This document shows positions 13,776 to 26,628 of a stretch of 32,000 bases of DNA, piece by piece; within the stretch, counting starts at the first letter, position 1, and every line of letters begins with the position of its first letter. Made by a program: the position numbers and the translations under genes. The notes below the pieces were generated by a model, which saw only the letters and a list, made by a program, of their open reading frames with translations, made no database searches and was not told where the DNA came from. Location: NCBI RefSeq assembly GCF_009617975.1, contig NZ_CP040089.1:240001-272000 (forward strand), read 5' to 3'. The DNA comes from Candidatus Nanohalobium constans. Its GTDB lineage: Archaea; Nanohalarchaeota; Nanosalinia; Nanosalinales; Nanosalinaceae.

Positions 13776-14501
13776 CTAAGGTGAACAAGTCCTCATATTG
13801 TCGAGAACCAGAGGTTTATCTCCTTGATATCCAACAAGGTCCATGACGATAAGCTTGACAGCGCCTATACGCGGAATCTTAAACATGGCAGTACCGTGGA
13901 TCTGGAATGGTCGGACATCTGACTCAAAATCCAGTTGTCTGGAGTTCGCATCACCCTTCGTCTCCAAACTGTCCTCACTCTTACTGATAACTCTATGTAC
14001 AATAGGTACTGGCTGTCCGGAAATCCGGTCGATATCCATTCCTCTTACTTCACTGCTTTTCTCCGAAACCTTTACATCCCTACTATCTATCCTCAGTAAT
14101 GCTTGGTCATTACCGTTATTCAGGTCTGGCTTAACCTCCAAAAGACTAACCTCTCCTATAGATGTATTAACCGAGGTATTATGGTCTGGAGAGTTTTCTT
14201 CCAGAGTGTAGCCCTGACCATTCACAGTAAAATCAATCCTGTCCGGCACCTGATAGATCGCTATGTCACCAGTTTCAATATTCTCGTAATCCCTGCCTTC
14301 TACCACTAGTATATCTCCGACATTGTAAACAGGATACATAGAACACGAAATCACCGAAACAACAGGTCTATCAGTATCAAGAGCAGTACCAGTGGTTTGA
14401 ATGGTGCCGAACGCTAAAATCAGTGCCAGAGCAAGGAAATAAAACCATTCAAAGGCTTCATTCTCTCCATCAAAAAGATCACTGAAAATTTCTGTAGCCA
14501 T
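13776..14501 (-). CDS. type I signal peptidase (archaeal/ER Sec11 type) with a large internal insertion
   Basis: An N-terminal TM helix is followed by SCSMYP (Ser box), PIVHRV (His box) and TKGDANS. About 85 aa are inserted between the Ser and His boxes. Confidence 0.75.
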   Translation of the reverse strand: MATEIFSDLFDGENEAFEWFYFLALALILAFGTIQTTGTALDTDRPVVSVISCSMYPVYNVGDILVVEGRDYENIETGDIAIYQVPDRIDFTVNGQGYTLEENSPDHNTSVNTSIGEVSLLEVKPDLNNGNDQALLRIDSRDVKVSEKSSEVRGMDIDRISGQPVPIVHRVISKSEDSLETKGDANSRQLDFESDVRPFQIHGTAMFKIPRIGAVKLIVMDLVGYQGDKPLVLDNMRTCSP

Positions 14502-14583
14502 AAAATTCTGTTGAACACTGATTGTTTAAAGCGATGTTGACTTGGTGAAAAGTGATTTAACTTTTGCTTCGCCTAGTATGTTT

Positions 14584-14757
14584 ATGTCTGAAGTTGAGTT
14601 TGGTGATGATTATGTCCGTATTCCCAAGAAGGAATATGAGGCTATGAAAGCCACTATAGAGACATTGGAGGATGAAGAAGTTATGGAACAACTTAAAGCT
14701 AGTCAGGAAGAGTCTTCCAAGAATCTTGATGATTTAAAGGAAGAAGTCAATCAGTAA
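14584..14757 (+). CDS. Phd/YefM/RelB-like antitoxin
   Basis: YVRIPKKEYEAMKATIETLEDEEVMEQLKASQEE is a typical antitoxin pattern. The ATG at 14584 lies 26 nt downstream of an ATTTAAC box. ATG 14578 and TTG 14542 are alternative starts. Confidence 0.55.
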   Translation: MSEVEFGDDYVRIPKKEYEAMKATIETLEDEEVMEQLKASQEESSKNLDDLKEEVNQ

Positions 14758-15008
14758 TGCTCTTTAGCATCTTCCTTGTGTTTGACAGCTCTTACTTCAA
14801 CGGTTTCATCTTCTATAGTGTACCAAATCCTATATTTTCCGGATCTCAATTGCCACAGACCGTTTAACTGTCCGCGCAAGGGTTTGCCATACTTCTTAGG
14901 GAAGTCTTCTAGTTTCTCCAGTTGAGCGAAAATCTCTGTTTGCTTGTCGCCATCAAGGTTCTTAATCTCCTCCTCAGCAGACTCCTTAACCCCTACACTA
15001 AATCCCAT
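14751..15008 (-). CDS. relE: RelE/ParE-family toxin
   Basis: KPLRGQLNGLWQLRSGKYRIWYTIEDETVEVRAVKHKEDAKEHY matches the RelE/ParE C-terminal signature. Confidence 0.75.
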   Translation of the reverse strand: MGFSVGVKESAEEEIKNLDGDKQTEIFAQLEKLEDFPKKYGKPLRGQLNGLWQLRSGKYRIWYTIEDETVEVRAVKHKEDAKEHY

Positions 15009-15355: not shown

Positions 15356-15949
15356 TCAAGTACTCCTTTTGGTGATTATCAGGTCCACAGGTGTTTCACG
15401 GCTTTCCTCAGTGTGAAAGCCGTAACTTGGCGGCAAACCGATTTCGTATTCCTGTACACCTTCTAGTTTATGGTTTGAACTTCGGACCAAACTTTTTATA
15501 CTGTCACGGGCGCCCCGCGGAGAAATCCCATAAACAGCATCACCAACCTCCAAAGCCTTCTCCCAGAAATCCAACCCAGTATCACTGTGAACAGAAAACG
15601 GAGGATTCATCACAACAGTATCAACAGACTTCCCAAATTCCTCAACATCAGACTGTAGAAAATCAATATTGGCTCCTAAATCCTCTGCGTTTTCTTTAGC
15701 CAGTTCCAGCGCAGAATCGTCTTTTTCAACAGCAACTACTTCTCCATCAATCAATTCAGCACCGATGCCAAGAATACCTGTACCTGTTCCGAGATCTGCG
15801 ACTTTTTTACTTTCGATGTCTCCCTGCATATAAGCTGTGAAGACTAGGTCGGCAGCTAAAGCGGGTGGGGTAATGTACTGTTCCAAACTGATCTTGGGGT
15901 CTTCAAAGTCTCTTACCTTTGAAAGAGCCTGTTTGAGGTCGTTTTTCAT
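15356..15949 (-). CDS. SAM-dependent RNA methyltransferase (METTL5/COG2263-like, NPPF motif)
   Basis: Motif I VADLGTGTGILG, followed by AVEKD, then motif IV VVMNPPF, which is typical of N6-adenine methyltransferases. Confidence 0.8.
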   Translation of the reverse strand: MKNDLKQALSKVRDFEDPKISLEQYITPPALAADLVFTAYMQGDIESKKVADLGTGTGILGIGAELIDGEVVAVEKDDSALELAKENAEDLGANIDFLQSDVEEFGKSVDTVVMNPPFSVHSDTGLDFWEKALEVGDAVYGISPRGARDSIKSLVRSSNHKLEGVQEYEIGLPPSYGFHTEESRETPVDLIITKRST

Positions 15950-16347
15950 TCTATTAGTTCTCCTGGGGTTACTCTTTCTAAATCCGTATTGTCGAAGTCG
16001 GTATCATAACTGATTATGTTCTCTATATTTTCCCTCTTTGCTACTGAATACTGAAGTGCATCGTCGAAGCAGAGGGAAGAGTCTTTCGAGTATTGTGATA
16101 TCATCACTTCTTCCTTCATCTTGGTCTCGAGGATTTGGATGTTTATAGTCGAGTTTACGCTTTCAAGAAATCTTTTGATAGTATCTGGATTGTCTGCCAG
16201 AGTTCCCTGAACTGCATGTATAGTAAACTCTGTCGCTGCTACGCTGATTCTTCCCTCAAAAATTTTTCCTAGTAACTTTTCACATTCATCTGCATTTTTC
16301 TGGTCTAAAAGAAGCTCCAGAAAAATGTTCGTATCAATAAGATACAT
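15946..16347 (-). CDS. vapC: PIN-domain toxin VapC
   Basis: MYLIDTNIFLELLL...SYDTDFD. The ATG directly abuts the vapB stop, and the gene's stop overlaps the methyltransferase start (ATGA). Confidence 0.8.
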   Translation of the reverse strand: MYLIDTNIFLELLLDQKNADECEKLLGKIFEGRISVAATEFTIHAVQGTLADNPDTIKRFLESVNSTINIQILETKMKEEVMISQYSKDSSLCFDDALQYSVAKRENIENIISYDTDFDNTDLERVTPGELIE

Positions 16348-16578
16348 CTAATCAACCTTTTTCCATGCTTCATCCTCGAGCTCAGTCGAGGTTTTATCGC
16401 TGTCTATAGCGCCTCGAAGTGCGCCCCAATCAACTTTCTCATCCTGCTCAACCCACTTCTCAATAAGGTCCATCGTCGCCTTCTTGATGCTACCTCGTTT
16501 CTGACCATATTCCTCTCTGGCTTTCTGCTTGAACTTTCGAATGAGTTCATCGTCGCCCTCAACCTTCAAAGTACCCAT
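16348..16578 (-). CDS. vapB: VapB-like antitoxin
   Basis: Small protein immediately upstream of the PIN gene. It reads LKVEGDDELIRKFKQKAREEYGQKRGSIKKATMDLIEKW. A TATA-like box lies 27 nt upstream. Confidence 0.6.
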   Translation of the reverse strand: MGTLKVEGDDELIRKFKQKAREEYGQKRGSIKKATMDLIEKWVEQDEKVDWGALRGAIDSDKTSTELEDEAWKKVD

Positions 16579-18309: not shown

Positions 18310-18335
18310 TTTTTCCCTTCCTTTTCTTGTTTTTA
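18310..18335 (+). terminator. T-tract terminator region after xpb
   Basis: GGGGGTTTTTCCCTTCCTTTTCTTGTTTTTA directly follows the stop. Oligo-T tracts act as archaeal terminators. The region overlaps the 3' end of the convergent gene. Confidence 0.4.
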
Positions 18336-18815
18336 TTCTTTTATTTCTTGTATGAGTTCTTTGAGTTCTATTCCTGCGAGTAAGGTGGCTGGTACTACTA
18401 TCAGTGCTATTTTGGCGAATTTTGTTCCTGTCAGGGTTATTATGTAGCCTAGGTAGGGTATTGAGAATATTTTTTTGCCTACTACTTGTTCTGCGTTGAT
18501 TCTTCCGGGGTCTGCTGCTTTGTTTGCTATTCCTTTTGTTTTGAAGGTTGTCTGGTTTTCTGAGGTTTCTTTGTTGATTACTTTGTGTGTGGTGTGGATG
18601 TCTCCGTCTTTGTATGTTATTGTGTCTCCTTCTTGGATTTTATCTGGGTTTGTGGCTTTGGTGAATAGGACTGAGCCTGTCATTATTTCTGGCTCCATTG
18701 ATCCTGACTGAACTATAAATCCGTTGATTCCCGGGGTTAACTGGCTTATTCCGTAGAGCATGAAGGGTGTTATAAGTATTAATAGCCCTAATTTAAGGAT
18801 TATTGAGTCTGGCAT
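18333..18815 (-). CDS. type I signal peptidase, second paralog (SipW-like, linked to a TasA-like cargo gene)
   Basis: An N-terminal TM helix is followed by SGSMEP, TTHKV and TKGIANKAADP, with a C-terminal TM helix. The start overlaps the stop of the PKD gene (TAATG). Confidence 0.8.
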   Translation of the reverse strand: MPDSIILKLGLLILITPFMLYGISQLTPGINGFIVQSGSMEPEIMTGSVLFTKATNPDKIQEGDTITYKDGDIHTTHKVINKETSENQTTFKTKGIANKAADPGRINAEQVVGKKIFSIPYLGYIITLTGTKFAKIALIVVPATLLAGIELKELIQEIKE

Positions 18816-19123
18816 TATTTTTCCACCCTTAATTGCTGATGGTACTTGTCTGTTGCGCCGTTAGATTTTTCGACGATAACAGTGATGTTGTGTTTTCCAG
18901 GGCTGAGGTTCTGCCGAGTTAATCTGCCTGTTGCGTTTCGTCCATCGTCGAACTTCCAGTGAACTTCTTCTATATATGGTTCTTGTTTCCTGGGAGTGTC
19001 TTTGGATGCTTCGGTAAAGCTTCCGGTCACTATTTCTTCATAGCCAGGTTTTATATCCGGACCTATAATTGAAAAGCTGGCTAAAGCTGCTAAAACCAGG
19101 GTGCTGGCTACTGCTATTTTCAT
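18815..19123 (-). CDS. small secreted PKD-domain protein
   Basis: Signal peptide MKIAVASTLVLAALASFS. The PKD-like segment reads WKFDDGRNATG...LSPGKHNITVIVEKSNGATD. The ATG at 19123 has a GTTAAA-type TATA-like box about 24 nt upstream. Confidence 0.6.
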   Translation of the reverse strand: MKIAVASTLVLAALASFSIIGPDIKPGYEEIVTGSFTEASKDTPRKQEPYIEEVHWKFDDGRNATGRLTRQNLSPGKHNITVIVEKSNGATDKYHQQLRVEK

Positions 19124-19198
19124 ATATAACAAGTTCTTGCCTAGTTAAACCATAGGATTTGTTATACTTCGAAATATGTGAATAATTGACGTGTTTAC

Positions 19199-19217
19199 AA
19201 AAAAAGAAGAAAAAAAA
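19199..19217 (-). terminator. oligo-T terminator after the TasA-like gene
   Basis: The minus strand reads CCCCCTTTTTTTTCTTCTTTTTTTG about 40 nt after the stop codon. Confidence 0.5.
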
Positions 19218-19259
19218 GGGGGAATAGTTTTTTGATGTGTGACAGAGTTCTCTCCGTGT

Positions 19260-20747
19260 TTACTGTGCTTGGAGTGTTACTTCTTCTGTGAGGTCAAGGT
19301 TTGTTCGATCAGGGTTGTTCATGTCTCCTGATAGGACCTGCCAGTTGTCAATTTCTCCGTCGTAGAACTCTTCGTAAAGTTCTGAGTCTTCGTTGAATGC
19401 TGGATCGATTGTGAAGCTGAAGTTCTCATCTAGAGGCTTGAATGCGCCTCCGTCTGTTCCTCCTGAGCCCCATGTCCAATCGATTGTCTGAGTGCTGGAG
19501 TTAACATCCCAGTTATCGTAGTTGGTGGATGCTTTCTCCCCGTTACTGCTCAGGTAAAGGTCGTCTTTCACAACCCAGTTTCCAGATTCGTTGAGACCTG
19601 TGATTTCCCAAGTTGCGGATCCACCATCTCCTCCTGCCTTGTCATGTACTACGACAAAGCTTAGACCGTCAGGTCCGTCGTAGAGGAACATGATAGATGT
19701 CTCCTGCTGTTGAAGGTTCTCTGTTCCAGCTGACTGGTAATAAGGCCCGTCTTCTGGATAAGTTGCTCCGTTCTGTGCCTGGTTGTCGTGGTCAAACCTG
19801 TCAGGCAGTCTGAAGTCGTAAAGCTCTTCAACTGTCTTGTTGCCGCTTATAGGACTGATTTCTACTTCTTTATCTCCTTGGTTTGCTGTGTAATCTGTTT
19901 CATTGTCCTTAGGGTCTTCTGGGTCTTCCGGGTTCTGAGGGTCTTCTGGGTTCTCTGGTTCCTCAGGTTCCTCAGGTTCTTCCGGGTTTTCTGGTTCGTC
20001 CGGTTTTTCTGAGTCATCTCCGTTGTCTCCGTCAGATTCGTTTCCTTCTTCTTTATCGTCTGTCCAAGGGTTGCTTGGATTGTCGTTGTGTCTTCTCTGC
20101 TCTGTGTAGAACTTGATGTCGTAGTTTACTGAGTCTCCTTGGATGATGTTTCCTGTCTCTAATGGTACTTTCCATTTGACTCCGATATAACCTGTCTCAG
20201 AGCCTGGGAAAGCTTCCTTGTCGTCTGTTGAAGGATTGCCGTCTAGAAGCACTCCTTTCTCCTCTCTTAGTTCATCTGCCGTTCCTTCGAAGATAATGTT
20301 CTCGTCGTCCTGTCTTACATTGTCTCCGTCGTCACTCCAGATAACGAACTCAAGCTTATCCTGGAGTTCTCCTTTACTGCCACAACTGCCTTCAGCCTCG
20401 TGTTCAGGCTCTGTACAGCTGTTATCCCAGTTGGATGTCTCGTTGATGTTCATCCAGATCCATCCAGGGTTATCCTTCAGGTGAAGGCTTACTGTCGCTT
20501 CACCGTGGTCTCCTGGCTTGATGTCTTTGAAATCGAAAATTGCTCCTGGGTCATTTGTCAGTTCCTGTGTCTCGACATGTTCTCCGTTGTAACTTTCTTC
20601 CCAATCGACCTTGAGATCCAGTTCGCCAGCCTGGAAGCTGTTGTCTGCACTGGTCTCACTGTCGTTAAATAAGGCCATGGTGCTGCTGCCGGCTAAAGCT
20701 CCGACTACACCGATCACCATGATAGAAACTAAAATGCGTTTTTTCAT
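19260..20747 (-). CDS. secreted TasA/camelysin-like protein with a SipW-cognate-type signal peptide, a PE-rich linker and an unassigned C-terminal domain
   Basis: The N-terminus reads MKKRILVSIMVIGVVGALAGSSTMALFNDSETSADNSFQAGELDLKV, followed by KPGDHGEATVSL and IWSDDGDN. GAGGTG lies 9 nt upstream of the ATG at 20747. The track start at 20807 is a TTG. Confidence 0.7.
   Translation of the reverse strand: MKKRILVSIMVIGVVGALAGSSTMALFNDSETSADNSFQAGELDLKVDWEESYNGEHVETQELTNDPGAIFDFKDIKPGDHGEATVSLHLKDNPGWIWMNINETSNWDNSCTEPEHEAEGSCGSKGELQDKLEFVIWSDDGDNVRQDDENIIFEGTADELREEKGVLLDGNPSTDDKEAFPGSETGYIGVKWKVPLETGNIIQGDSVNYDIKFYTEQRRHNDNPSNPWTDDKEEGNESDGDNGDDSEKPDEPENPEEPEEPEEPENPEDPQNPEDPEDPKDNETDYTANQGDKEVEISPISGNKTVEELYDFRLPDRFDHDNQAQNGATYPEDGPYYQSAGTENLQQQETSIMFLYDGPDGLSFVVVHDKAGGDGGSATWEITGLNESGNWVVKDDLYLSSNGEKASTNYDNWDVNSSTQTIDWTWGSGGTDGGAFKPLDENFSFTIDPAFNEDSELYEEFYDGEIDNWQVLSGDMNNPDRTNLDLTEEVTLQAQ
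19908..20006 (-). repeat. imperfect tandem nucleotide repeats encoding a (P-E/D-x)n linker
   Basis: The plus strand reads gggtcttctgggtcttccgggttctgagggtcttctgggttctctggttcctcaggttcctcaggttcttccggg... This encodes KPDEPENPEEPEEPEEPENPEDPQNPEDPEDPKD. Confidence 0.8.
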
Positions 20748-20839
20748 TAATTGATACACCTCATGTGTGTTTGTTTCAGGTTTTGAATTAGTGGAAAAGA
20801 CTGTCAACGTCCCCTCCGTAGAAACCGTTACCTAAACTA

Positions 20840-20847
20840 CTTATAAA
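20840..20847 (-). promoter_or_regulatory. TATA-like box for the TasA-like gene (implies a ~70-nt 5' UTR)
   Basis: The minus strand reads TTTATAAG. The distance to the Shine-Dalgarno-led ATG at 20747 implies a leadered mRNA, unlike most genes in this window. Confidence 0.35.
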
Positions 20848-20979
20848 CAATAATTACAGAGTTAAAGAAGTGAAAAAGGCTAGAAATCAGTGTAAAATAT
20901 CTGAAAGAGTATATAAGTTGGTTGATTCATGTTTTGTTTTGAAATAAAAATAGAGGATGTGATGTTGTGCAGTATTGTG

Positions 20980-21159
20980 CTAACTTTTTGTGGCTAAAAC
21001 TTTTTTAGCATCGTCCTTAATCTTTACTTCTTCTAGTGATTCTCTATATCGTTCGTTAACAGCTGCTAATTCGGTTTCAAATACTGAGCTCTGGTTCATT
21101 GGTGTTGGCACCTTGGAATAACTTTGTAGTGATTTTGCTAGTTTCGCTAGAGTCTTCAT
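20980..21159 (-). CDS. possible small ORF (59 aa), hypothetical
   Basis: Hand translation gives MKTLAKLAKSLQSYSKVPTPMNQSSVFETELAAVNERYRESLEEVKIKDDAKKVLATKS. Only a weak GGAG lies upstream, and the composition is less acidic than that of neighbouring genes. Confidence 0.3.
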   Translation of the reverse strand: MKTLAKLAKSLQSYSKVPTPMNQSSVFETELAAVNERYRESLEEVKIKDDAKKVLATKS

Positions 21160-21278
21160 AGCTCCATTTCTTATTCATGGTATCCTATCTAATCACCTTC
21201 ATGGCTTAGAACTACTTAACAAGTATTAATCCTGTTGTTACAGAATAAAGTATGGTAAGAACTACAATGGTGCTCTTT

Positions 21279-21593
21279 TCAATTGTCTTTTAAGCTGTAT
21301 TCTACCTTTTGGCTGTTGTTCCCATTGAGTTCTTCCAGTAGGTCGATAAACTTGTCGGCAAATTTCTCGCCTTCGGGCGTAAGTTCCAGGATTTTCTTCC
21401 TGCCTTCCTTCTTGCTTTCGACGAGATCTTCTTCCTCAAGTCTTGAAATAGTTTTTACTGTGTGTGCATACGTTGTGTCGATCTTTTTAGATATCATGCT
21501 GCAGTAAATATCTTCTCTATTCCTTCTGATTGTTACAAGTGCCATAACTGGTTTCTCCTTAAGGAAAAAGTCCTGCATTTTTTCGTCTCCCAT
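21279..21593 (-). CDS. winged helix-turn-helix DNA-binding protein
   Basis: IYCSMISKKIDTTYAHTVKTISRLEEEDLVESKKEGRKKILELTPEGEKF shows the HTH-plus-wing pattern of MarR/ArsR-like regulators. GGAGGAT precedes the ATG. Confidence 0.65.
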   Translation of the reverse strand: MGDEKMQDFFLKEKPVMALVTIRRNREDIYCSMISKKIDTTYAHTVKTISRLEEEDLVESKKEGRKKILELTPEGEKFADKFIDLLEELNGNNSQKVEYSLKDN

Positions 21594-21595
21594 TT

Positions 21596-22207
21596 TTAAT
21601 CCTCCATTAGCCTGCTAGCTGTTTTACCTTGTTTTTCTACTTGTTTGTTAGGAAATTCAGATGATAGACCTAGAACTATACCGAATACATTCTCTGCTCC
21701 TGCGTCTAGTAGTCTACTGGCTCCGTGAGCTAATGAAGTTCCGCTGAGAGAAAGGTTATCGACTAAGATCACGTTCTTGCCTTTGAAATCTTTGACATCG
21801 ATTGAGCCTTCTAGATTCACTATCTTAGCCTTCTCTGATTCTAGTTCGTGGCTTTCACGGACCTTATGTGTTCTTTCCAGGACCTGTTGATACTGTATTC
21901 CGGTTTCTTCCGATAGAGATTTGAGCAGACTCTGCATGTTGGAGTTTACATCGTCTTCAGCATGAGTTGGATAGAGCGTCATCAAATCCCATGACATCTC
22001 ATCTTCCAGGAAACGAGACTCAATCGTGTTTTTCAACTTCTCTCTAAACTCTTCTTCGATATCCTCGTCTCCGTACACATAGAACCAGACCTGCCTACGA
22101 GAAAACTCATCCTCGCCCTGATCCTTCTTGTACTCGCCTATGCCTAGAACCGGAACTTCAGTTCCAAACTCCGAAACCTCGACTTTTCCAAAATGATTTT
22201 CTTCCAT
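21596..22207 (-). CDS. ComF-family phosphoribosyltransferase-like protein
   Basis: The C-terminal PRPP-loop-like segment is GKNVILVDNLSLSGTSLAHGASRLLDAGAENV. It is preceded by LYPTHAEDD...LERTHKVRESHEL, which matches ComF/GntX architecture. The ATG at 22207 is preferred over the TTG at 22219. Confidence 0.6.
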   Translation of the reverse strand: MEENHFGKVEVSEFGTEVPVLGIGEYKKDQGEDEFSRRQVWFYVYGDEDIEEEFREKLKNTIESRFLEDEMSWDLMTLYPTHAEDDVNSNMQSLLKSLSEETGIQYQQVLERTHKVRESHELESEKAKIVNLEGSIDVKDFKGKNVILVDNLSLSGTSLAHGASRLLDAGAENVFGIVLGLSSEFPNKQVEKQGKTASRLMED

Positions 22208-22418
22208 ATACCCATACAAAACCCGCAGATCATTTTAACTATATATGTACAATACTGCATCCTTACGAATAAACATATTTAAGACAGTAAATCAACTTCC
22301 ACGCACTAAAAACAATTACCCACACATTTCTCACAGAAAAATCTCAGAAAAAATAACTTACAGCTAAAAAACCCTTATTTTTCGCTGCAAAACCAAAACT
22401 CCGTCCTGTTACTTAAAC

Positions 22419-26247: not shown

Positions 26248-26321
26248 GGGTTCGTGGTCTAGTTGGTTATGACACCGCCTTGACATGGCGGAGATCCCCG
26301 GTTCGAATCCGGGCGAACCCA
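26248..26321 (+). tRNA. tRNA-Val (anticodon GAC)
   Basis: Hand-folded cloverleaf. Acceptor stem is GGGTTCG/CGAACCC. Anticodon stem is CCGCC/GGCGG with loop TTGACAT. T arm is CCCGG-TTCGAAT-CCGGG. The discriminator is A and no CCA is encoded. Confidence 0.9.
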
Positions 26322-26442: not shown

Positions 26443-26628
26443 GGGAAAGTAGCTCAGGGGCTAGAGCGCTGCGCTCATAACATTAAGTTGTGAGCAATGA
26501 GGGATGCAGCCTTTTTCTGGAAAGGTTGCTTGAGAAGATCTTTTGATCTTCGTGCCCGATGATTAAACCAAGAATTCCAGAAATTGTGAGATACGCAGAG
26601 GTCCCGGGTTCAATTCCCGGCTTTCCCA
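26443..26628 (+). tRNA. tRNA with anticodon CAU (elongator Met or Ile2), interrupted by a 113-nt intron at position 37/38
   Basis: Acceptor stem is GGGAAAG/CTTTCCC. D arm is GCTC-AGGGGCTA-GAGC. Anticodon stem CTGCG/CGCAG is split by the intron. T arm is CCGGG-TTCAATT-CCCGG. G1-C72 and the lack of a GGG/CCC anticodon stem argue against an initiator tRNA. Confidence 0.85.
26480..26592 (+). other. tRNA intron (113 nt) with a bulge-helix-bulge splice motif
   Basis: The 4-bp helix CTCA(26474-77)/TGAG(26587-90) is flanked by 3-nt bulges TAA (26478-80) and ATA (26591-93). Internal hairpins include GAAGATC-TTTT-GATCTTC (26534-51). Confidence 0.75.

Follow-up and report, generated by a model that had tools for sequence, protein, structure and literature searches.

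Analysis of a 32,000-nt stretch of the genome of Candidatus Nanohalobium constans LC1Nh (contig NZ_CP040089.1, positions 240,001 to 272,000; hereafter the window, whose numbering is used throughout) suggested that the minus-strand gene LC1Nh_0310 and the two small genes that follow it, one of which codes for a signal peptidase, make up a TasA-superfamily module for an extracellular filament or matrix. We hold this reading with moderate confidence. LC1Nh_0310 is annotated as 'hypothetical' in GenBank and its product was 100% identical to that of the open reading frame (ORF) at 19260-20747. The organism is a cultivated nanohaloarchaeal ectosymbiont whose host, the haloarchaeon Halomicrobium sp. 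LC1Hm, degrades chitin (PMC7443923); a DPANN-type ectosymbiont as the source of this DNA had been proposed from the nucleotide sequence alone (the original prediction), and the proposal was borne out.

The N-terminal part of the LC1Nh_0310 protein was found to belong to the TasA/camelysin family. In a Pfam scan PF12389 (Peptidase_M73, TasA/camelysin; cut-off 22.5 bits) matched with E=1.8e-8 and 34.9 bits, residues 1-218 aligning with profile positions 2-192 of 196. The TasA equivalog model NF046066 of NCBIfam, which has a cut-off of 450 bits, reached 15.1 bits, with the N-terminal 47 residues alone matching. Judged from these profile scores, the protein is a TasA-family member and not an ortholog of Bacillus subtilis TasA.

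The structure of residues 1-235 was modelled with AlphaFold2 on an alignment of 25 homologs. The model showed a predicted local distance difference test (pLDDT) score of 80 and a predicted template modelling (pTM) score of 0.73; residues 1-31 were unstructured, with pLDDT <50. When the model was compared with the Protein Data Bank (PDB) by Foldseek, the top match was the TasA fibre solved by cryo-electron microscopy (cryo-EM), 8aur_A, with E=1e-6 and a probability of 1.0, and this was the only PDB match below 1e-3. The TasA/camelysin assignment made in the original prediction was thus upheld by both the profile and the structural comparison. The weak matches that came after 8AUR were chaperone-usher pilins and Pyrodictium CanA. 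A likeness to AbpA of Pyrobaculum, which had also been put forward, was not recovered: AbpA (7UEG) lay outside the top 50 PDB matches of the N-terminal domain model.

The signal peptide is of the SipW-cognate class, as anticipated: the NCBIfam model TIGR04088 (cognate_SipW) matched residues 12-43 with 33.1 bits (cut-off 19), and the SipW-type motif was kept in all homologs of the protein. The n-region reads MKKRIL and contains no RR. Cleavage is predicted to occur after T-M-A25, giving a mature protein that would begin with L-F-N-D-S-E-T-S-A-D-N-S-F-Q-A-G-E-L-D-L; the site was placed at this position because the mature TasA protein and its donor strand begin at residue 28. Residues F27, D29, E31, N36, G41 and L45 were invariant among 25 homologs, F38 (at least 90%) and D44 were nearly so, and the segment past the predicted cleavage was among the best-conserved parts of the family.

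With this cleavage the second residue of the mature protein would be F and the fourth D. The mature N-terminus of TasA is A-F-N-D, so that B. subtilis TasA and LC1Nh_0310 presumably share the same x-F-N-D start. The donor strand of TasA comprises residues 28-38, with hydrophobic contacts made by F29, I32 and F39 (PMC9674648), and an aromatic-2/acidic-4 signature has been described for the donor strands of the AbpX family (10.64898/2026.01.04.697558). An N-terminus that is highly conserved, and to which the monomer model assigns no intramolecular role, would suit a strand acting in trans; this does not prove polymerisation.

The predicted product of 18333-18815 is a signal peptidase I of the archaeal/endoplasmic reticulum (ER) type (SipW-like), and its two membrane helices are located at residues 1-27 and 131-155. 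It matched TIGR02228 (archaeal signal peptidase I) with 106 bits (cut-off 51.85), and the SipW equivalog model with 92 bits, below the cut-off of 190. Like the matches to PF12389 and TIGR04088, the one to TIGR02228 far exceeds what chance would produce. The catalytic residues Ser39 (SGSMEP) and His77 (THKV) and the distal Asp102 (AADP) are in place and align with human SEC11A/C. In the KGDxN box, the position of the first Asp is taken by Ile in the module peptidase and in that of Nanohalovita, other relatives having Asp.

A separate signal peptidase paralog at 13776-14501, also named in the original prediction, was positive for TIGR02228 (69 bits); it has one membrane segment and an insertion of ~75 aa. 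The module peptidase is 26% identical to this paralog and 34-37% identical to the haloarchaeal peptidases encoded beside TasA-like genes. A six-frame motif scan located the SipW-type N-terminus in TasA-like genes only, and once in the window; therefore a cargo-dedicated role for the module peptidase, as first suggested, is well supported. TafD, the dedicated peptidase of the haloarchaeal donor-strand pili known as tafi, has been shown experimentally to be required for these pili (PMC11821415).

The conservation of the gene arrangement was assessed in eight nanohaloarchaeal loci, namely the window and seven others from Candidatus Nanohalovita haloferacivicina (L001), metagenomes (L003, L012, L013 and L014) and metagenome-assembled genomes (L005 and L015). 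The TasA-like proteins of these seven loci are 45-80% identical to the window protein. In all eight loci a peptidase homolog with Ser, His and Asp intact follows the TasA-like gene or genes, and genes for a winged-helix protein and a phosphoribosyltransferase (PRTase)-like protein are located no more than 5 kb away, being directly upstream on the same strand in six. A small PKD-like gene whose stop codon overlaps the peptidase start was found in five loci (the window, L001, L012, L015 and, as a 193-aa version, L014), and was not present in L003, L005 and L013. The three-gene linkage that had been proposed thus held throughout for the TasA-like and peptidase genes, and only in part for the PKD-like gene. 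At L014 (8001-12606) two TasA-like genes flank the PKD-peptidase pair, the second containing a laminin-G (LamG) domain inside the jelly-roll; in this it is similar to TafC, the tip protein of tafi, which also bears LamG.

The 102-aa product of the PKD-like gene scored 24.4 bits with PKD_4 (cut-off 27; E=3e-5), over profile positions 31-80 of 85 only, which corresponds to about two-thirds of a PKD domain (PF18911/PF00801). Of the signal-peptide PKD protein originally described, the N-terminal hydrophobic segment (residues 1-24) was found; the PKD match is partial and just below the Pfam threshold. The PKD core W-x-F-D-D-G...G-x-H-N-(I/V)-T is kept in homologs, and no other family was matched in Pfam or NCBIfam.

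A TapA-like role for this protein, as initially proposed, was rejected: the gene is missing in 3/8 loci, the donor-strand motif F-x-D...F-x-AG-x-LDL was not found in the protein by motif scan, and only the coupling to the peptidase is conserved. A derivation of the small gene from the PKD inserts in the TasA-like proteins of relatives was also rejected as unsupported, the best match being marginal (E=8e-4 over 51 residues). Because the translational coupling is conserved, the PKD-like membrane protein could, speculatively, be a partner of the peptidase, as TafG is of TafD, and this appears more likely than a TapA-like initiator.

In the LC1Nh_0310 protein the jelly-roll is followed by an acidic Pro/Glu-rich linker, at the position of which relatives carry PKD or other variable inserts, and by a C-terminal domain for which AlphaFold2 produced a beta-sandwich with a pLDDT of 93.8 and a pTM of 0.92. 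Comparison of this model with the PDB by Foldseek yielded no match below 1e-3; the weak fold neighbours were adhesin-type sandwiches (FnBPA/MSCRAMM, CNA, Als and cohesin), with template modelling (TM) scores <=0.33. No Pfam or NCBIfam model matched the domain, even when 34 family members were scanned singly, and the earlier statement that it belongs to no nameable family was therefore confirmed. Among the predicted viral structures of BFVD there was one strong match, A0A248SJG3_1 (867 aa, E=7e-10, TM 0.66, 22% identity), for which no name was found; no sequence match was obtained in INPHARED phages (tblastn) or IMG/VR (pattern scan).

An exhaustive HMMER search retrieved 560 cluster representatives of the C-terminal domain at E <=1e-3; for the most part the family occupies the distal end of haloarchaeal surface proteins. 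Nanohaloarchaeal TasA-like proteins carry the domain as their conserved C-terminus. The haloarchaeal copies show 40-56% identity and occur in several settings. In proteins of 270-500 aa with highly charged tails the domain comes first after a signal of the twin-arginine translocation (Tat) type; some of these proteins are encoded as tandem paralogs, and neither TasA nor peptidase genes lie in their vicinity. A single-sequence genome scan with the domain identified four haloarchaeal loci, none of them near TasA or peptidase genes. In Halorussus-type surface proteins of ~1000 aa, with PKD repeats, CARDB and PGF-CTERM, it is the distal N-terminal domain. Three tandem copies were found in one protein and 11 partial copies in a protein of 4747 aa, and a distant copy sits inside haloarchaeal TasA-like proteins. 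Because of this distribution in haloarchaeal surface proteins, which argues for an extracellular binding function, we propose that the domain is a binding 'head'. The same role had been considered possible in the original prediction, and the place that the domain takes in other proteins agrees with a head that binds at the distal end.

In the mechanism that we propose, the 495-aa preprotein would be exported through Sec and cut after Ala25 by the co-encoded two-helix ER/SipW-type signal peptidase. The new N-terminus would then enter the jelly-roll of the next subunit as a donor strand, as in TasA, giving rise to fibres. Each subunit would bear the beta-sandwich head on the acidic Pro/Glu linker of ~50 residues, and the fibre would therefore display many copies of the binding module. 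Its likely function would be adhesion or matrix formation, connecting the cell to the host, to other cells or to a substrate, and the winged-helix protein encoded upstream would be the probable regulator of the module.

Electron microscopy of LC1Nh has revealed an extracellular matrix, together with thick stalks unwinding to give thin filaments (PMC7443923). Bundling TasA-like fibres may offer an alternative explanation for these observations of the extracellular matrix. A bolder version of the filament reading, which we consider quite unlikely, would be that the subunit-borne heads have been exchanged with surface proteins of the host, that the TasA-like fibres form both the symbiont-host tether or matrix and the stalks seen by electron microscopy, and that the head binds an S-layer glycan or the same domain on the host.

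Several observations weigh against a filament or matrix function. The similarity between the N-terminal domain model and 8aur_A is modest (TM 0.48, 16% identity over 233 aligned columns), and sequence searches of the PDB with the full protein and with both domain profiles returned low-complexity matches to the PE linker or nothing. The signal peptide is the sole hydrophobic segment of LC1Nh_0310, which has no membrane anchor of its own. The C-terminal residues of TasA form an inter-subunit interface (PMC9674648), and a linker and a 211-aa domain added at this end might disturb subunit packing. None of the archaeal TasA homologs that cluster nearest to bacterial TasA has been characterised experimentally, to the knowledge of the authors of the AbpX preprint (10.64898/2026.01.04.697558). 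Finally, no TapA-, TafF- or TafC-like anchor or initiator was identified.

This last finding also favours a secreted or surface binding protein that does not polymerise, in which a self-complemented jelly-roll would carry a soluble lectin or substrate-capture head, with polysaccharide or host glycan as examples of what it might bind, and the conserved N-terminal motif would serve for peptidase recognition only. TasA itself has a stable self-complemented monomer (PMC9674648), the conserved motif belongs to the signal-peptide model TIGR04088, and the varied domains that relatives add to the scaffold (PKD, vWA, LamG) would be explained equally well by a generic secreted carrier. However, the motif runs ~20 residues past the cleavage site with F-x-D invariant, which exceeds what a peptidase site usually needs, and in the structural comparison TasA in its fibre form came out best. 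Moreover, the characterised members covered by the analysis assemble by donor strands: cryo-EM has shown this for TasA, AbpA, AbpX and the tafi pilin TafE, and CanA and the Sulfolobus threads have been described as donor-strand filaments (10.64898/2026.01.04.697558). We regard the monomeric protein as unlikely, though deserving serious weight.

It is very unlikely that LC1Nh_0310 codes for a cell-envelope or S-layer-associated component which assembles laterally on the surface and not as a fibre. The protein is indeed secreted, strongly acidic (isoelectric point ~4), encoded in a single copy per genome and provided with 8 N-glycosylation sequons, and the head-domain family occurs in haloarchaeal surface proteins anchored through PGF-CTERM; but LC1Nh_0310 itself lacks a C-terminal anchor, PGF-CTERM or membrane segment, and showed no similarity to S-layer proteins in the Pfam, NCBIfam and PDB searches. 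A secreted metalloprotease of the camelysin type (MEROPS M73), acting on host or environmental proteins, is hardly probable at all. The name of the Pfam family, Peptidase_M73, and the description of camelysins as zinc proteases (PMC5879678) would point in this direction, yet no protease fold was found among the structural neighbours of the N-terminal domain model, and what weakens the reading is that TasA, the structurally characterised member, is no protease: it lacks such activity and binds metal to a negligible extent (PMC5879678).

Comparison of the module with tapA-sipW-tasA of B. subtilis showed that both share the PF12389 family, the SipW-cognate signal peptide and, beside the cargo gene, a two-helix signal peptidase of the ER type, in addition to the structural match with the TasA fibre. 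In contrast with the B. subtilis system, the two module proteins fall below the TasA and SipW equivalog cut-offs, there is no TapA homolog, the subunit bears the acidic linker and the 211-aa domain, the organism belongs to an archaeal DPANN lineage, and the protein is halophile-acidic.

PF12389 homologs have been noted in Halobacteriales and other archaeal orders, their function being untried there (PMC9245690). The TasA-like/SipW-type clusters of haloarchaea such as Halobellus sp. H-GB7 and Natrinema longum are known from bioinformatics and uncharacterised. In common with the module they have the N-terminal motif A-Y-F-N-D-T-E...AGELDLKVDW, a neighbouring signal peptidase (34-37% identical), a winged-helix gene nearby and extra domains in or on the TasA scaffold, including the distant copy of the head domain. 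These clusters are tandem arrays of 4-5 paralogs with Tat-looking n-regions (SRRK), whereas nanohaloarchaea have one or two genes, variable K/R n-regions and the head as a C-terminal fusion; the linkage of the PRTase-like and regulator pair to the module is specific to nanohaloarchaea. In Halobellus sp. H-GB7 (L011, 3596-9120) n-regions of the form S-R-R-K-(V/A)-L precede A-Y-F-N-D-T-E, compared with KKR, NRR, KRN and NKH in nanohaloarchaea. This contrast looks like the Tat/Sec switching of TafE pilins (PMC12337348).

The tafi system of Haloarcula hispanica and Natrinema sp. J7-2 has been placed in the TasA superfamily, belongs to the same hypersaline community and has a demonstrated role in biofilm formation. 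It resembles the module in having a donor-strand pilin (TafA/TafE), a peptidase (TafD), a regulator (TafB) and accessory proteins. The tafi pilins, however, measure ~150-350 aa, are exported through Tat and lack an additional head domain. TafD spans the membrane with four helices and is partnered by TafG (DUF5305), and a tip protein, TafC, and an anchor, TafF, are encoded. None of these features of Tat pilin, TafD/TafG, TafC and TafF is present in the nanohaloarchaeal module. No DUF5305 gene was found in the neighbourhoods of the nanohaloarchaeal loci, and no tafi structure was among the top Foldseek matches of the N-terminal domain model.

The archaeal bundling pili AbpA of Pyrobaculum and AbpX of Pyrodictium have in common with the module the TasA-superfamily jelly-roll and a donor strand at the N-terminus, to which AbpX adds the aromatic-2/acidic-4 donor signature and a dedicated peptidase. 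The differences are that AbpA is related to TasA at the profile and structure level only and has no dedicated peptidase, and that the peptidase of AbpX has ten membrane helices.

The features of the locus are listed in Table 1. The three minus-strand ORFs of the module were found at the positions originally predicted, and the N-terminal sequence, TAATG overlap, Shine-Dalgarno sequence and oligo-T tract quoted with them were all present. The ORF of the TasA-like gene does start at the ATG at 20747, but its length is 495 aa and not 496, a figure that includes the stop codon. A GAGGTG sequence lies 9 nt 5' of this ATG and a TTTATAA box ~95-100 nt 5' of it. The GenBank model of LC1Nh_0310 is 486 aa long and starts nine codons later, at M10 (20720-20747 region), which would cut short the n-region of the signal peptide. 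The GenBank start appears to be late by these nine codons. We prefer the ATG at 20747 on account of its Shine-Dalgarno sequence and of the K/R-rich n-region, which most homologs also have.

The T8-C-TT-C-T7 tract after the TasA-like gene is likely an archaeal termination signal, and the stop codon of the PKD-like gene and the start codon of the peptidase gene are joined as TAATG, with an overlap of one base. From the positions of these motifs, and not from observation, a leader of ~70 nt, a leaderless bicistron and high expression may be inferred. Scanning for sigma-70 promoters and intrinsic terminators is of the bacterial type and not applicable to this archaeal window. A small ORF at ~20980-21180, between the regulator and the TasA-like gene, was dropped; it has a stop after 32 codons.

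Table 1. Features of the LC1Nh_0310 locus and its surroundings, in window coordinates.
Feature	Coordinates	Strand	Remarks
TasA-like gene LC1Nh_0310	19260-20747	minus	495 aa from ATG at 20747
Signal peptide	20673-20747	minus	residues 1-25 (MKKRILVSIMVIGVVGALAGSSTMA); predicted cleavage A25|L26
TasA/camelysin-like jelly-roll domain	20052-20672	minus	residues 26-232; includes putative donor strand
Acidic Pro/Glu-rich linker	19896-20051	minus	residues 233-284; 50% Asp+Glu
C-terminal beta-sandwich 'head' domain	19263-19895	minus	residues 285-495; 211 aa; unnamed family
Oligo-T tract T8-C-TT-C-T7	19199-19217	minus	~40 nt past TasA-like stop codon
PKD-like small gene	18815-19123	minus	102 aa
Module signal peptidase I gene	18333-18815	minus	160 aa
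Putative promoter and leader	20748-20850	minus	TTTATAA box 20841-20847; GAGGTG Shine-Dalgarno 20757-20762; from sequence
Winged-helix (MarR-like, HTH_27) gene	21279-21593	minus	candidate module regulator
Phosphoribosyltransferase-like gene (ComF-like, type I PRTase fold)	21596-22219	minus	conserved module neighbour
Signal peptidase I paralog	13776-14501	minus	probably housekeeping; context, outside module

The winged-helix protein encoded upstream matched PF13463 (HTH_27) with 34.6 bits (cut-off 22.2). Its homologs, with 61-82% identity, adjoin the TasA-like gene in all loci, and the gene is sometimes duplicated in nanohaloarchaea. The protein is a candidate regulator of the module because of the analogy with TafB and with the DUF7344 genes of haloarchaeal loci. 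The PRTase-like protein gave weak matches only (Pfam Pribosyltran, 18.7 bits; TIGR00201 comF, E=4e-6); its homologs, with 44-66% identity, are located <=5 kb from the TasA-like gene in 7/7 of the other loci.

Elsewhere in the window, Rfam identified a complete tRNA over 186 nt on the plus strand (26443-26628, 52.4 bits), which adjoins the tRNA-Val(GAC) at 26248-26321 and was not reported by ARAGORN; it is probably an intron-containing archaeal tRNA. Two probable toxin-antitoxin pairs (strands -/+) were recognised by eye: a small ORF with a RelE/ParE-like ORF of 85 aa at 14542-15008, and a PIN-like ORF of 133 aa (MYLIDTNIF...) with an overlapping upstream ORF of 76 aa at 15946-16578.

The assignment to the TasA family is not new, since databases already label close relatives of the protein as 'SipW-dependent-type signal peptide-containing protein' and 'TasA family protein'. 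Filament loci that combine a donor-strand subunit with a dedicated peptidase are by now well documented, namely tapA-sipW-tasA of Bacillus, tafi of Haloarcula and Natrinema, and the AbpX loci. In the library searched, no publication combining 'DPANN' and 'TasA' was found, and the top literature matches for TasA terms did not include nanohaloarchaea. We did not find described a module of this kind in DPANN/Nanohaloarchaeota, its phylum-wide fusion to an unnamed head domain, or the conserved five-gene arrangement.

This locus extends the TasA superfamily to DPANN archaea. It also defines an unnamed extracellular domain family of ~560 clusters in nanohaloarchaea and haloarchaea, with 40-56% identity. 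There is a good understanding of how TasA-type subunits assemble in bacteria and, dating from 2022-2025, in other archaea. LC1Nh is available in culture together with Halomicrobium LC1Hm, and a proteome has been deposited (PXD016346). Proposals for nanohaloarchaeal attachment have so far centred on giant lectin-like (LamG/ConA) proteins (PMC7443923). Host attachment by DPANN ectosymbionts is little understood, and the locus identified here provides a small, single-copy and phylum-conserved candidate.

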